Assembly: GCF_963921235.1 (NCBI RefSeq) | Contig: NC_086097.1 | Coordinates: 56,050,001-56,114,000 of the forward strand | DNA from: Mobula hypostoma | Taxonomy: Eukaryota | DNA length: 64,000 nucleotides | Direction: 5' to 3' | Part shown: piece by piece, positions 622 to 62,101 of the stretch | Layout of the letters: every line of letters starts with the position of its first letter | Numbering within the stretch: the first letter of the stretch is position 1 | The notes under the pieces: generated by a model | Seen by the model: the letters and a program-made list of their open reading frames with translations, nothing else | What the model was told of the DNA's origin: nothing | The model's database searches: none | Program-made: the position numbers and the translations under genes

Positions 622-3606
622 TTTGCAAGGGGGATGGGACCCGGAGCAACAGAGCAGTGAAAGAAGTGCATAGAGTAAAGCCAGATCTAACATATAGGGA
701 GGCTTTGAGGAAAGAGAAGCAGAATAAAACGTGTAAAGGTAGTAAGGTAGAAGGGCTGAAGTGTGTGTACCTCAATGCAAGAAGCATCAGGGACAAAGGT
801 GATGAACTGAGAACACACATGGAATTATGATGTAGTGGCCATTACAGAGACTTGGCTGGCACCAGGGCAGGAATGGATTCTCAACATTCCTGGATTTCAG
901 TGCTTTAAAAGGGATGGGGGGGGGCGGAAGGGGAGGAGGGGTGGCATTACTGGTCAGGGGTACTATTACAGCTACAGAAAGGATGGGTAATGTAGCAGGA
1001 TCCTCTTTTGAGTCAGTATGGGTGGAAGTCAGGAACAGGAAGGGAGCAGTTACTCTATTGGGGGTATTCTATAGGCCCCCTGGTAGCAGCAGAGATACAG
1101 AGGATTAGATTGGGAGGCAGATTTTGGAAAGGTGCAGAAATAACAGGGTTGTTATCATGGGTGACTTTAACTTCCCTAATATTGATTGGCACCTGATTAG
1201 TTCCAAGGGTTTAGATGGAGCAGAGTTTGTTAGTGTGTCCAGGACGGATTCCTGTCACAGTATGTGGACAGTCCGACTAGGGGGAATGCCATACTAGATC
1301 TAGTACTAGGTAATGAACCGGGTCAGGTCACAGACCTCTCAGTGGGTGAGCATCTGGGGGACAGTGACCACCGCTCCCTGGACTTTAGCATTACCATGGA
1401 AAAGGATAGAATCAGAGAGGACAGGAAAATTTTTAATTGGGGAAGGGCAAATTATGAGGCTATAAGGCTAGAACTTGTGGGTGTGAATTGGGATGATGTT
1501 TTTGCAGGGAAATGTACTATGGACATGTGGTCGATGTTTAGAGATCTCTTGCAGGATGTTAAGGATAAATTTTTCCCGGTGAGGAAGATAAAGAATGGTA
1601 GGGTGAAGGAATCATGGGTGACAAGTGAGGTGGAAAATCTAATCAGGTGGAAGAAGGCAGCATACATGAGGTTTAGGAAGCAAGGATCAGATGGGTCTAT
1701 TGAGGAATATAGGGAAGCAAGAAAGGAGCTTAAGAAGGGGCTGAGAAGAACAAGAACGGGGCATGAGAAGGCCTTGGTGAGTAGGATAAAGGAAAACCCC
1801 AAGGCATTCTTCAGTTATGTGAAGGAAAAAAGGATGACAGGAGTGAAGGTAGGACCGATTAGAGATAAAGGTGGGAAGATGTGCCTGGAGGCTGTGGAAG
1901 TGAGCGAGGTCCACAATGAATACTTCTCTTCGGTATTCACCAATGAGAGGGAACTTGATGATGGTGAGGACAATATGAGTGAGGTTAATGTTCTGGAGCA
2001 CGTTGATATTAAGGGGGAGGAGGTATTGGAGTTGTTAAAATACATTAAGACGGATAAGTCCCCGGGGCCTGACGGAATATTCCCCAGGCTGCTCCACGAG
2101 GTGAGGGAAGAGATTGCTGAGCCTCTGGCTAGGATCTTTATGTCCTCGTTGTCCACGAGAATGGTACCGGAGGATTGGAGGGAGGCGAATGTTGTCCCCT
2201 TGTTCAAAAAAGGTAGTAAGGATAGTCTGGGTAATTATAGACCAGTGAGCCTTACATCTGTGGTGGGAAAGCTGTTGGAAAAGATTCTTAGAGATAGGAT
2301 CTGTGGGCATTTAGAGAATCATGGTCTGATCAGGGACAGTCAGCATGGCTTTGTGAAGGGCAGATCGTGTCTATAAAGCCTGATAGAGTTCTTTGAGGAG
2401 GTGACCAGGCATATAGATGAGAGTAGTGTAGTGGATGTGATCTATATGGATTTTAGTAAGGCATTTGGCAAGGTTCCACACGGTAGGCTAATTCAGAAAG
2501 TCAGAAGGCATGGGATCCAGGGAAGTGTGGCCAGGTGGATTCAGAATTGGCTTGCCTGCAGAAGGCAGAGGGTGGTGGTGGAGGGAGTACATTCAGATTG
2601 GAGGATTGTGACTAGTGGTGTCCCACAAGGATCTGTTCTGGGACCTCTACTTTTCGTGATTTTTATTAACGACCTGGATGTGGGGGTAGAAGGGTGGGTT
2701 GGCAAGTTTGAAGATGACGCAAAGGTTGGTGGTGTTGTGGATAGTGTAGAGGATTGTCCAAGATTGCAGAGAGACATTGATAGGATGCAGAAGTGGCCTG
2801 AGAAGTGGCAGATGGAGTTCAACCCAGAGAAGTGTGAGGTGGTACACTTTGGAAGGACAAACTCCAAGGCAGAGTACAAAGTAAATGGCAGGATACTTGG
2901 TAGTGTGGAGGAGCAGAGGGATCTCGGGGTACATGTCCACAAATCCCTGAAAGTTGCCTCACAGGTGGATAGGGTAGTTAAGAAAGCTTATGGGGTGTTA
3001 GCTTTCATAAGTTGAGAGACAGAGTTTAAGAGTCGCAATGTAATGATGCAGCTCTATAAAACTCTGGTTAGGCCACACTTGGAGTACTGTGTCCAGTTCT
3101 GGTCGCCTCACTATAGGAAGGATGTGGAAGCATTGGAAAGGGTACAGAGGAGATTTACCAGGATGCTGCCTGGTTTAGAGAGTATGCATTATGATCAGAG
3201 ATTAAGGGAGCTAGGGCTTTAGTCTTTGGAGAGAAGGAGGATGAAAGGAGACATGATAGAGGTGTACAAGATAATAAGAGGAATAGATAGAGTGGATAGC
3301 CAGTGCCTTTTCCCCAGGGCACCACTGCTCAATACAAGAGGACATGGCTTTAAGGTAAGGGGTGGGAAGTTCAAGGGGGATATTAGAGGAAGGTTTTTGA
3401 CTCAGAGAGTGGTTGGTGTGTGGAATGCACTGCCTGAGTCAGTGGTGGAGGCAGATACACTCGTGAAGTTTAGGAGACTACTAGACAGGTATATGGAGGA
3501 ATTTAAGGTAGGGGGTTATATGGGAGGCAGTGTTTGAGGGTCGGCACAACATTGTGGGCCGAAGGGCCTGTACTGTACTGTGCTGTACTATTCTATGTTC
3601 TATGTC
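250..3606 (+). mobile_element. CR1-clade LINE, 5'-truncated within ORF1, inactivated (family A)
   Basis: ORF1 esterase C-terminus, then APE endonuclease and RT frames, then 3' UTR with GGGCCGAAGGGCCTGT hairpin and (TTCTATG)n tail ending ~3606. Confidence 0.95.
740..3537 (+). pseudogene. CR1 ORF2 (APE endonuclease + reverse transcriptase), disrupted
   Basis: [58 protein letters not shown]; catalytic motif reads FEDD instead of FADD; stops at ~1106, ~2374, ~3013, ~3220 and frameshifts. Confidence 0.93.
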
Positions 3607-33021: not shown

Positions 33022-34870
33022 ATACATAGAACATAGAATAGAATAGTACAGCACAGTACAGGCCCTTTGGTCCTCAATGTTGTGCCGACCCTCAAACCCT
33101 GCCTCCCACATAATGCCCCCACCTTAAATTCCTCCATATACCTGTCTAGTAGTCTCTTAAATTTCACTAGTGTATCTGACTCCACCGCTGACTCAGGCAG
33201 TGCATTCCACACACCAACCACTCTCTGAGTCAAAAACCTTCCTCTAATATCCCCCTTGAACTTCCCACCCCTTACCTTAAAGCCACGTCCTCTTGTATTG
33301 AGCAGTGATGCCCTGGGGAAGAGGCACTGGCTATCCACTCTATCTATTCCTCTTAATATCTTGTACACCTCTATCATGTCTCCTTTCATCCTCCTTCTCT
33401 CCAAAGACTAAAGCCCTAGCTCCCATAATCTCTGATCATAATGCATACTCTCTAAACCAGGCAGCATTCTGGTAAATCTCCTCTGTACCCTTTCCAATGC
33501 TTCCACATCCTTCCTATAGTGAGGCGATCAGAACTGGACACAGTACTCCAAGTGTGGCATAACCGGAGTTTTATAGAGCTGCATCATTACCTCGCAACTC
33601 TTAAACTCTATCCCTCGATTTATGAGAGCTAACACCCCATAGACTTTCTTAACTACCCTATCTACCTGTGAGGCAACTTTCAGGGAACTGTGGACACGTA
33701 CCCCAGATCCCTCTGCTCCTCCACACTACCAAGTATCCTGCCATTTACTTTGTACTCTGCCTTGGAGTTTGTCCTTCCAAAGTGTACCACCTCACACTTC
33801 TCAGGGTTGAACTCCATCTGCCATTTCTCAGCCCACTTCTGCATCCTATCAATGTCTCTCTGCGATCTTTGACAATCTTTACACTATCTACAACACCACC
33901 AACCTTTGTGTCGTCTGCAAACTTGCTAACCCACCCTTCTACCCCCACATCCAGGTCGTTAATAAAAATCACGAAAAGTAGAGGTCCCAGAACAGATCCT
34001 TGTGGGACACCACTAGTCACAATCCTCCAATCTGAATGTACTCTCTCCACCACCACCCTCTGCCTTCTGCAGGCAAGCCAATTCTGAATCCACCTGGCCA
34101 AACTTCCCTGGATCCCATGCCTTCTGACTTTCTGAATAAGCCTACCATGTGGAACCTTGTCAAATGCCTTACTAAATCCATATAGATCACATCCACTGCA
34201 CTACCCTCATCTATATGCCTGGTCACCTCCTCAAAGAACTCTATTAGGCTTGTAGACACGATCTGCCCTTCACAAAGCCATGCTGACTGTCCCTGATCAG
34301 ACCATGATTCTCTAAATGCCCACAGATCCTATCTCTAAGAATCTTTTCCAACAGCTTTCCCACCATAGACGTAAGGCTCACTGGTCTATAATTACCCGGA
34401 CTATCCCCACTACCTTTTTTGAACAAGGGGACAACGTTTGCCTCCCTCCAATCCTCCGATACCATTCCCGTAGACAACAAAGACATAAAGATCCTAGCCA
34501 AAGGCTCAGCAATCTCTTCCCTCGCCTCGTGGAGCAGCCTGGGGAATATTCCATCAGGCCCCGGGGACTTATCCATCCTAATTTATTTTAACAACTCCAA
34601 CACCTCCTCTCCCTTAATATCAACATGCTCCAGAATATCAACCTTACTCATATTGTCCTCACCATCATCAAGTTCCCTCTCATTGGTGAATACCGAAGAG
34701 AAGTATTCATTGTGGACCTCGCTCACTTCCACAGCCTCCAGGCACATCTTCCCACCCTTATCTCTAATTGGCCCTACCTTCACTCCTGTCATCCTTTTGT
34801 TCTCCACATAATTGAAGAATGCCTTGGGGTTTTCCTTTACCTTACTCGCCAAGGCCTTCTCATGCCCCCT
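33022..34870 (-). mobile_element. CR1 LINE family A, 5'-truncated, frameshifted
   Basis: Near-identical reverse complement of ~1760-3606; FADD intact here; (CATAGAA)n tail at left end. Confidence 0.95.
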
Positions 34871-35314
34871 CCTTGGGAAAGACAAAGAAATATTATCAGA
34901 GAACACATAACCTTCATAAAGGGAAAGTCAGGAAAGATGACAAAACTTTCGTGAAAAGTTGAGTTCAGAAACATCTGGAGTAAAAGCAGGCCACTAAATT
35001 AGATAACGACAGATCTGCACATTTAATCAATTTCCCTTTTTAGATCTATATTGTTTGACAAAGTTACCTCATGAAAATCTTAGTCCCAAAATTCTATCTG
35101 TCTAACAATCAGCCTCTAGTCAATCAACCGCAGATCTGCTACTTTTGAAATCAAACATGAAGATATGTGTAATTTCTCACATAATCATTCTGAAATAAAT
35201 CCTTAGTCAAATACTCCAGAATGACAATCCTATCTATTTGGTGAAACAGCACTGTAGTAGCAGTTAATCTTTGTCAATAGTTATATTAGTATTGTCTAAT
35301 TCATTGTTACATAC

Positions 35315-35905
35315 AGTAGCAGTAGGCAGCCGTCAATCCCAGGGGAACATGGGTTTGTGCTGCTGGTGGACTGTGTCCTCTCCAGGGCGCAAGCCTGGGC
35401 GGGAAGATTTGAAGAACCGACTGTTGCCCATTGCAGCATGTTCCCCCTCTCAACGTCACTGATGTAGTCCAAGGGAAGGGCAAGCACCGATACAGCTTGG
35501 CACCAGTGTCGTCACAGAGACTGCCAGAGTGAAGTTGTAAACAATATCAAACTGCCTTAGGGACCCCGGCTTGGATTCCTTCCTCGAGGTTTACTCCCGA
35601 AGCCTTTCCCATGGTGGGTATGGTCGCAAGGCAGCGGAGGGTTAAAATCAGAGTGTTCCTTTTACTAGGCGGGCTGCCGTCCAAGGCTGACAAGCCCCAC
35701 CTGTCCAAAGCAACTGGTTTTGAGGCGCCAGTGGTCCGCCTTTGCCCCTTCTCTTGTCAGTAAAAACAGTTCCTTCAGGCCGAGTAGCTAAGTCACATGT
35801 GAAGGCCAAGAACTGGACTTGGTTGTCACAGGCTGTTAGTGACACACTTTATAGGTAGTGGGAGCTTATCCCCACTACCACCCCGGCTCTGACAACCTTC
35901 GGAAG
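35315..35905 (-). mobile_element. RTE-derived short non-autonomous element with structured 5' head
   Basis: No coding homology; related to 22172-22737; shares GGAGTAAACC..AATCC..CCC(T/C)AAGG block with 61545-62101; short tandem tail. Confidence 0.75.
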
Positions 35906-60859: not shown

Positions 60860-61520
60860 GGACACGGAACAGGTGGCCCATCCCAAACTGACTATGCTGA
60901 CCATAATGCCAAACTAATTCCATCTGCTTGCACGTGGTCTACACCCCATAAATCCTTGCCTGTTCACATGCCTGCCTAAATGCTCTTAAAATTGCTATCA
61001 TTTCTGCTTCAACTACTTTTCCTGGCAGCAGATTCCAGGGACCTTCCATTCTCCATAAAAAATCTAGCCTCATAAATCTCCTTTATATTTTATCCCTCTT
61101 ACTTCCAATATCTGATATATATCCATCCTGGTAAGAAGACTCTATCTACCATATCTATGCCTCTCATAATTTTACTAGAGTTCTCTCAGGTCATCCCTTA
61201 GCGGTGGAGAGAAAACAATCTAAGTTTGTCTAACCTCTCCTTAGATTAGTCTCTAATCCAGATAACATCCTGATAAGTCTCTTCTACACTCTTTCCAAAG
61301 CCTCCACAGCCTTCCTGTAATGCAGTGACGAGAATTAGGCACAATATTCCAAATGCCGCATAACTAGATTTTTATGCACTTGCAACATAAATTCTTGGCA
61401 TTAATACTCAGCATCTCAACCAATGAAGGCAAGTATACCACCCAATCTACTTGTGTTGCCACTTTCAAGGAAATATGGACTTGCACCCCAAGCTCTTCTG
61501 TACATCCTCCCATTTACTGT
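60860..61520 (-). mobile_element. Old CR1 3' fragment
   Basis: CTATCTACCATATCTATGCCTCTCATAATTTT, CTTTCCAAAGCCTCCACAGCCTTCCT and CACAATATTCCAAATG parallel 33330-33750. Confidence 0.75.
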
Positions 61521-61544
61521 AGATTTGGTTTGTTGTTACATTAT

Positions 61545-62101
61545 GAATGGTGTGGTAGTGCTTGTCGCTCTCACTTTCTGCTTCCACCACTGGCTAGCAG
61601 TTTTGCAAAAAGGAGAGCTGAATGTGGAAGTCTCTCCCTGCCAGTATATAGCCTCTCCAACAGCAAGCCTCGTGTAGTGCCTCCTTGCTGGCGACACACA
61701 GAAACTGAACTCCTTTCAGACTCGGGCTGAACTACAGAGGATGGAGAGGAGAGGAGATCTGGCTCCTGCACATGTAGCACGCAGGCCCACAGGTGTTTGG
61801 ACATACCCTGGTGCTTGTCAGCCAGATCCCCAGCTATGGGTAAATACCCCAGTGCCTTGTGGGCAGCCTTGGGAGAGATGAAGGCTACAGGAGTAAACCC
61901 AGACAGAAAATCCAGAGTGGAGCCCCCAAGGTGGCTGGACATCACTGAACATCCTTCTAGCATATCCTGCAGCCAAGCTGGTGTCAAACATATTGTTTCA
62001 TAAGCTTTCCTTTGGACTACACTGGTGAGGCTGAGAGGGGGGTCTTGATGTCCGGGCAGCTCAGGATCTCCTTACCTTCCACCCAGGCTTGTGATGATGA
62101 T
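61545..62101 (+). mobile_element. RTE-derived short non-autonomous element with (TGA)n tail
   Basis: Non-coding; shares internal block with 35315-35905; ends GCTTGTGATGATGAT. Confidence 0.7.
61550..61740 (+). ncRNA. HDV-like self-cleaving ribozyme fold (partly decayed)
   Basis: P2 CCTC-G-TGTAGT (61668-78)/ACTACAGAGG (61731-40); P3 GCC/GGC around L3 TCCTTGCT; P1 3' GACACAC; P4 CTGA/TCGG; J4/2 CTGA with C at 61727. Confidence 0.75.

Follow-up and report, generated by a model that had tools for sequence, protein, structure and literature searches.

The interval 61550-62101 on the plus strand of the window, which is the whole analysed stretch of 64,000 nucleotides from Mobula hypostoma, raises the question whether a self-cleaving RNA stands at the head of a short mobile element. 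In the preliminary description an HDV-like ribozyme was placed at the head of a short non-coding element derived from an RTE retrotransposon. This placement stands for the family to which the interval belongs, where it is supported by covariation, by the 5′ ends of the copies and by RTE homology, but not for the copy in the window, which is predicted to be inactive. We consider it probable that 61550-62101 represents a mutated copy, truncated and likely no longer active, of a non-coding retroposon of ~630 nt, composed of the 5′ UTR of an RTE LINE and an RTE-type tail, and that the first base of the complete copies of this retroposon is also the first base of a predicted HDV-like ribozyme, which would cut the element RNA from longer host transcripts. 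The features of the interval are as follows.

61516-61549, plus strand: expected place of the family head (P1 5′ strand, nt 1-6), unalignable or heavily decayed, with 2 of 5 P1 pairs possible
61550-62101, plus strand: copy of the ~630-nt RTE-derived family with the subfamily A junction, corresponding to family nt ~31-590; head and tail missing
61550-61556, plus strand: GTGTGGT, the P1 candidate of the preliminary description, equal to family nt 31-37 and lying within J1/2
61556-61667, plus strand: rest of the long J1/2 insert, with a conserved helix at ~61589-94/61640-45 (RNAalifold; both sides change at 3 of 6 pairs)
61668-61678, plus strand: P2 5′ strand, intact, 4 bp + bulge + 6 bp
61679-61692, plus strand: P3 (3 bp, intact; 61679-81/61690-92) and L3 (61682-89)
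61693-61699, plus strand: P1 3′ strand (P1′), same as the family majority
61700-61701, plus strand: P1.1 3′ strand, AG where the family has GG
61705-61725, plus strand: P4 stem-loop, strands 61705-08/61722-25
61726-61730, plus strand: J4/2 with the putative catalytic C at 61727 and the conserved A at 61730, neither of which varies among the 12 aligned heads
61731-61740, plus strand: P2 3′ strand
61741-62093, plus strand: remaining RTE 5′ UTR, with the conserved RTE 5′-UTR motif at 61828-61848
62094-62101, plus strand: GAT repeat, where the 5′ part joins the 3′ part; other copies continue with a tail of ~42 nt, which is absent here

A core in HDV order had been described for 61668-61740, and every motif listed for it could be located at its coordinates. 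The likeness of L3 was judged against what we take to be the L3 sequence of genomic HDV.

Searching the genome (3.48 Gb) yielded 2,785 first-look candidates. The best 40 were scored; besides the copy in the window, they comprise 39 further ones with 85-87% identity. Exact words from the head, the core and the tail were found 180, 259 and 176 times, respectively, whereas their reversed controls gave 0, 1 and 0 matches. The core word comprises the 14 nt of P3-L3-P3′; because of its excess over the reversed control, and because 88 of the 90 fetched core-word places belong to this family, the core is not a chance occurrence. Among the fetched head-selected places, 4 of 30 also hold the exact core word, for which reason the copy number is likely to be roughly 1,000-3,000, with a wide error.

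The family majority has a length of ~632 nt and was derived from 91 near-full copies among 117 non-redundant ones, with a median divergence of 9.6%; it carries GG at P1.1. Other copies reach ~45 nt beyond the copy in the window at both ends, and the unit, which had been put at ~550 bp, has to be extended to ~630 nt, of which this copy covers nt ~31-590 only. The family contains no ATG frame of more than 40 codons, and ARAGORN detected no tRNA gene in five of five family loci. The earlier statement that Pol III boxes are missing agrees with the absence of a B box from the family; one loose A-box-like word is present. Target-site duplications with a score of at least 7 were found in 14 of 30 end-anchorable copies, compared to 1.1 in shuffled pairings, and the duplications stop within a few bases of the head. 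All tested ribozyme features are kept in 2 of 91 copies and the core in 19 of 91, and most family copies are predicted to be dead, like the one in the window.

The origin of the family from an RTE is apparent from its 5′ UTR. A conserved RTE 5′-UTR motif printed in PMC5786205 matches positions 61828-48, and scanning metagenomes with this motif gave at least 117 loci. In one of these, L211 (metagenome contig Ga0302173_10009466), the 5′ UTR corresponds to the whole body of the family, with 78.5% identity over nt 8-580, and is followed by an open frame of 1020 aa with endonuclease and reverse transcriptase (RT) domains. With UTR homology to an autonomous RTE, an RTE-like 3′ end with a microsatellite tail, no ORF, multiple copies and duplications, the family shows these features of a bipartite non-autonomous RTE element.

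The comparison of the L211 protein with the genome of the window revealed an abundant autonomous RTE with ~66% identity (24,045 candidates). Its tail and that of the family are identical at 27 of 37 aligned bases. As its head is different and its UTR reaches no more than 68-73% identity, this abundant RTE is a candidate driver of the family, and the most likely one, but not its parent. No autonomous copy of LINE length with the family head was found among the best 30 tail-selected, 30 core-selected and 20 junction-selected loci and 30 loci of subfamily B (see below). The junction predicted for a parent gave 26 matches, and the 20 that were fetched are short elements or fragments, none of them followed by an RT frame. 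RTEs of the DUF6451 type were rejected as parent, since none of 37 loci matched the head or the tail, and three places where core and tail lie far apart, considered as LINEs, turned out to be short copies with secondary insertions. Viral and prokaryote collections yielded no ribozyme-bearing relative. Related sequence is present in sequencing runs of nine organisms, in three of them at a share of at least 0.25; among the run matches listed for a query of the first ~365 nt of the copy plus 265 nt of flank, there was no RNA run. Contigs from four presumed RNA runs cover the family and are uninformative on starts, strand and cleavage.

Several observations on other elements were made along with these searches. 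Horizontal transfer or a slow rate of change could account for the 78.5% identity over ~570 nt of non-coding UTR between the family and L211, an intact RTE from a eukaryote. The abundant autonomous RTE (L312, L314, L319, L320, L323, L327) starts with a GG hexamer ~840 nt upstream of the endonuclease match, and a 6-bp P1 is possible there; by eye, its HDV-like core has a hairpin apparently inserted in L3 and almost no P4. Two RTE copies with long open frames, L081 (G000:C36 ~131.60 Mb, minus strand; 1018 aa) and L320 (G000:C5 ~117.31 Mb; 1048 aa), are possibly recent and belong to two different RTE families; the 5′ UTR of the L081 family contains a conserved, structured-looking motif. Within the window, a second short RTE-derived element is located on the minus strand at ~35370-35900. 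Its part 35390-35606 is 68% identical to the downstream UTR of the family, and its head, by eye, resembles that of the abundant autonomous RTE and not that of the 61550-62101 family. Two LINE fragments at 1751-3605 and 33024-34875, presumably CR1/L2-like, are 94.6% identical, lie in inverted orientation and contain RT-like frames. Among contigs of bacterial metagenome-assembled genomes (L405, L406, L407), L406 is close to the start of the cephalopod element Sepioth-SINE2B given in the supplement of PMC5786205, and is likely animal DNA within bins labelled bacterial.

The predicted fold was compared across relatives in an alignment of 12 heads, comprising two family copies and 10 heads from metagenome contigs; the near-duplicates L242 and L280 and the short-P4 variants L206, L243 and L244 were left out. 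With the HDV structure, 87% of the cells are paired, compared to 28-45% in slid-partner controls. Both sides change at 14 of 29 pairs (34 cells), a value reached by none of 500 shuffles, although this figure is not a probability, as the structure string was written from the same sequences and the shuffles ignore shared ancestry. The pairs changing on both sides are distributed over P1 (3, scored on 7-9 of the 12 rows only), P2 (8), P3 (1) and P4 (2). We take this covariation as a strong indication of the predicted fold, not as a p-value. RNAalifold, when run without a given structure, recovered P2, P3 and P4 and a covarying helix in J1/2.

The family thus has the nested double pseudoknot of P1, P1.1, P2, P3 and P4 in HDV order; the features of the HDV-like fold were taken from PMC4908430 and PMC13635239, as far as these sources describe them. 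The putative catalytic C and the A that follows three bases later, which do not vary among the 12 heads, are kept in 78 and 88 of the 91 genomic copies, respectively. In L3, the equivalent of U20 is invariant among the 12 heads and that of G25 is present in 11. The first P1.1 pair is formed in all 12 heads and the second in 9; the second pair likewise tolerates change in the solved nematode ribozyme, according to the part of PMC13635239 that deals with it. Of 194 loci with the motif, 9 were matched upstream of it by a generic HDV descriptor and none on the reverse strand; this descriptor is a loose one and also gave two chance matches elsewhere in the 64-kb window. In the metagenome contigs L206, L243 and L244, this RTE motif is likewise preceded by an HDV-like head, with a P4 of few bases and a shorter J1/2. 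The P2-P3 junction is normally direct; L214, L216 and L164 carry 11-12 extra nt at this place.

The 5′ strand of P1 is formed by the first 6-7 bases of the family, which lie ~155 nt upstream across J1/2. The strands proposed in the preliminary description, GTGTGGT (61550-56) and GCTTGTC (61560-66), correspond to family nt 31-37 and 53-59 and are both part of J1/2, whose length had accordingly been underestimated at ~100 nt. The starts were determined for 88 copies, obtained by fetching 90 core-word places and dropping two non-family ones, without any selection on the head. The start falls at nt 1-3 in 51 of these copies and at nt 4-10 in another 20, so that 71 of 88 begin within nt 1-10, in line with the predicted G1; the remaining starts lie at nt 11-24 (2), 25-33 (5), 34-60 (6) and beyond (4). 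At the three positions immediately preceding the search word, 30 head-selected copies carry G (15 copies), G (25) and T (25), and nothing is conserved above them.

Out of 314 upstream 7-mers, none pairs better with P1′ than the first bases of the element; GTGTGG follows in second place. The same ranking in eight relatives, for which the anchors were picked by eye, put the predicted P1 strand first in five and third in two; it failed in L211, whose P1 requires a bulge. A P1 of 7 bp is present in subfamily B, L260, L241, L190, L164 and L244, and the 5′ and 3′ strands differ between relatives: GTGTGTC/GACACAC (L260), GTCTACC/GGTAGAT (L164), GTGGTGT/ACACCAC (L190) and GTGGGGC/GCCCCAT (L244).

The sister subfamily B was met via the search for the predicted junction; its UTR is longer by ~26 nt, and it has an ATC tail. 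Its head GTGTGTC is a perfect 7-bp partner of GACACAC; the exact heptamer is found in 10 of 30 copies, and 17 of 30 have a G at its first position, with background before it. With a median divergence of 12.3% from its own majority (some broken rows included), compared to 9.6% in subfamily A, subfamily B is apparently the older one. It also seems to be the rarer one, with 53 exact head matches compared to 180 for subfamily A. The heads of subfamily A are one base short, with GGTGTC in 27 of 66 and the perfect heptamer in 0 of 66, and their P1 closes only as 5 bp, a bulged A and G1-C, the bulge lying beside the cut site. For R2 ribozymes, the relevant part of PMC3774820 describes P1 as 6 or 7 bp with much flexibility, and P1 mismatches as uncommon and tied to a loss of activity. 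Due to this link between mismatches and poor cleavage (PMC3774820), the bulged-A P1 of subfamily A is a real weak point of the ribozyme reading.

A P1 strand of 8 nt containing a bulged G was rejected as well, the upstream G being at background level (3 of 30 and 3 of 35). A T directly precedes G1 in 18 of 27 complete subfamily A heads and in 6 of 10 subfamily B heads; it was taken as an integration feature, since it is common to both subfamilies. Furthermore, several target-site duplications overlap the first G or GG of the element. Together with the T preference, this could point to a target preference, to microhomology or to an untemplated base.

With these results, the spread of the family can be outlined. 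A source copy would be read through from a host promoter, consistent with the lack of a tRNA head and a B box in the loci searched. The first ~233 nt of the RNA would fold into the nested double pseudoknot, in which P1 closes over the structured J1/2 of ~155 nt, as suggested by the covariation. The C of J4/2 would catalyse the cut 5′ of G1 and thereby fix the 5′ end, which the fold and the starts of the copies point to. The protein of an autonomous RTE, probably the abundant one, would then bind the tail and insert the RNA by target-primed reverse transcription, leaving the short duplications that are observed. Inserted copies decay, as the copy at 61550-62101 did.

The two subfamilies bear directly on the cleavage step. 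Tentatively, and with some doubt, subfamily A may have out-spread its ancestor after the loss of one base in P1, with the bulged-A ribozyme and its structured 155-nt J1/2 still cleaving enough for retroposition and with a second P1 strand at nt 31 giving a minor 5′ end. If so, the subfamily pair would be a natural experiment on how much of a ribozyme an RTE parasite needs, and A and B together offer a simple test of P1 tolerance.

Another explanation, favoured by the higher count of exact head matches in subfamily A despite its imperfect P1, is that RNA polymerase II uses an internal promoter within the RTE 5′ UTR. Such a promoter would set the 5′ end, subfamily A would have spread without need of cleavage, and the ribozyme fold would be a relic of the parent LINE or have a second function, as in Pr77 of L1Tc. 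In L1Tc and NARTc, the first 77 nt reportedly act as both promoter and ribozyme (PMC3383444), and in the present family the sequence of the long J1/2 is conserved beyond its sole supported helix. However, the majority core of subfamily A is otherwise canonical, its copies still begin at a G that is able to close P1, and among the relatives P1 covaries with the precise 5′ end. We consider this explanation improbable and prefer processing of the 5′ end by the ribozyme.

The copy in the window itself is in poor condition. From 61554 to 62101 it is 90% identical to the family majority; in total it is 14% diverged, among the worst of the 91 near-full copies, and it has a 12-nt deletion near the start of J1/2. 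In L3, the equivalents of U20 and G25 are retained, with a single C-to-T change at 61686. The AG in place of GG had been ascribed to CpG decay, and the genomic copies bear this out: of the 91 copies, 56 have G and 31 have A at this position, while the preceding C is kept in 66 and replaced by T in 23. The G lost at 61700-01 is a member of the P1.1 pair formed as C-G by all 12 aligned heads, which leaves one of two P1.1 pairs, besides two of five P1 pairs at the family position. No significant target-site duplication could be assigned to this copy, the best shared words being 6 nt long. An Rfam search with the copy, eight better loci and the isolated core returned no HDV-type match, and neither the copy nor the better loci matched any other Rfam family; this places the sequences outside the curated Rfam families and has no bearing on the fold. 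The folding stability of the stretch is not unusual (z = 0.68, in a model that does not include pseudoknots). As head, tail and the invariant P1.1 pair are all lost, the copy is predicted to be decayed and likely inactive, and a function of its own is unlikely.

That this copy is nevertheless active, with GTGTGGT at 61550-56 as an alternative P1 strand and host RNA being cut before 61550, was the version of the preliminary description. This strand is the sole P1 strand left and the best remaining partner of P1′ in the copy, as it is the second best in the family, and P2, P3, the G25 equivalent and the C at the catalytic position are intact. Furthermore, 5 of the 88 starts lie at nt 25-33, compared to 2 at nt 11-24 and 6 at nt 34-60, and the clear homology of the copy begins at nt 31. 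This bump is small and was spotted post hoc, however, with ~2 starts expected from the neighbouring rates; GTGTGGT is not conserved as a partner where the P1′ of relatives differs, and the broken invariant P1.1 pair and the high divergence of the copy argue in the same direction. Activity of the copy is very unlikely, and only a slim chance is left for the strand to act as a second P1. That the HDV likeness is accidental, the element being an ordinary SINE-like repeat with a head conserved for other reasons, would agree with the missing Rfam match, the z-score and the two chance descriptor matches, but is hardly credible in view of the compensatory changes in P1, P2, P3 and P4, the invariant putative catalytic residues and the 5′ ends at G1.

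HDV-like ribozymes at the 5′ ends of RTEs were described by Ruminski et al. (2011), as reported in passages of PMC6765202, PMC5786205, PMC3774820 and PMC7761336. According to these passages, the present family resembles them in the order of the fold, the location at the first base of the RTE 5′ UTR, the long J1/2 and the proposed release from co-transcripts. It differs from them in its nature as a non-coding derivative with an internal deletion, in its location in a large vertebrate genome, in the J1/2 of ~155 nt with its own covarying helix and in the bulged A at the base of P1 in subfamily A. A search of freely accessible papers, which took in neither the Repbase and Dfam databases nor the supplement of Ruminski et al. 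(2011), turned up no description of such an element from a cartilaginous fish.

SINEs headed by tRNA, 5S or 7SL sequences are likewise short, non-coding and of high copy number, with a LINE-type tail and target-site duplications, whereas the head of the present family is derived from a LINE, with no small-RNA head and no B box. ORF-less bipartite derivatives of RTEs are common, and those treated in PMC5786205 include RTE-N1/N2_Lch, RTESINE1/2, WALLSI3, MAR4_MD and Bov-A. As described there, they share with this family the composition of an RTE 5′ UTR and a short RTE 3′ end, the lack of an ORF, the kept 5′ end of the LINE and a 5′-UTR motif; in contrast to the present case, the link to a ribozyme is only proposed in that text. 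In the supplement of PMC5786205, 4 of 5 and 3 of 4 element motifs of the family were absent, and no family is named there with its sequence.

Internally deleted LINEs headed by a ribozyme are known from R2 SIDEs of Drosophila and from NARTc, RIME and SIDER of trypanosomatids, and in vitro activity is given for several of them in the sections of PMC3774820 and PMC4035085 on these elements. Going by these sections, they too are short non-autonomous deletion derivatives of LINEs that keep the 5′ HDV-like ribozyme and the 3′ recognition sequence. In contrast, the present family belongs to the RTE clade, is inserted at dispersed sites and has kept ~580 nt of 5′ UTR, and its ribozyme activity is predicted. 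The reading of the family as a further case of this already known type of ribozyme-headed short retroposon is well supported by the sequence comparisons. It adds a vertebrate case from the RTE clade, in which promoter-less short retroposons would bring their own 5′ scissors, and it points to a ribozyme lineage that is common to RTEs in metagenome contigs and was missed by Rfam. It also lends direct sequence support to the suggestion of Kojima, as worded in the part of PMC5786205 concerned, that RTE, Ingi and R2 give rise to bipartite non-autonomous elements owing to their ribozymes.
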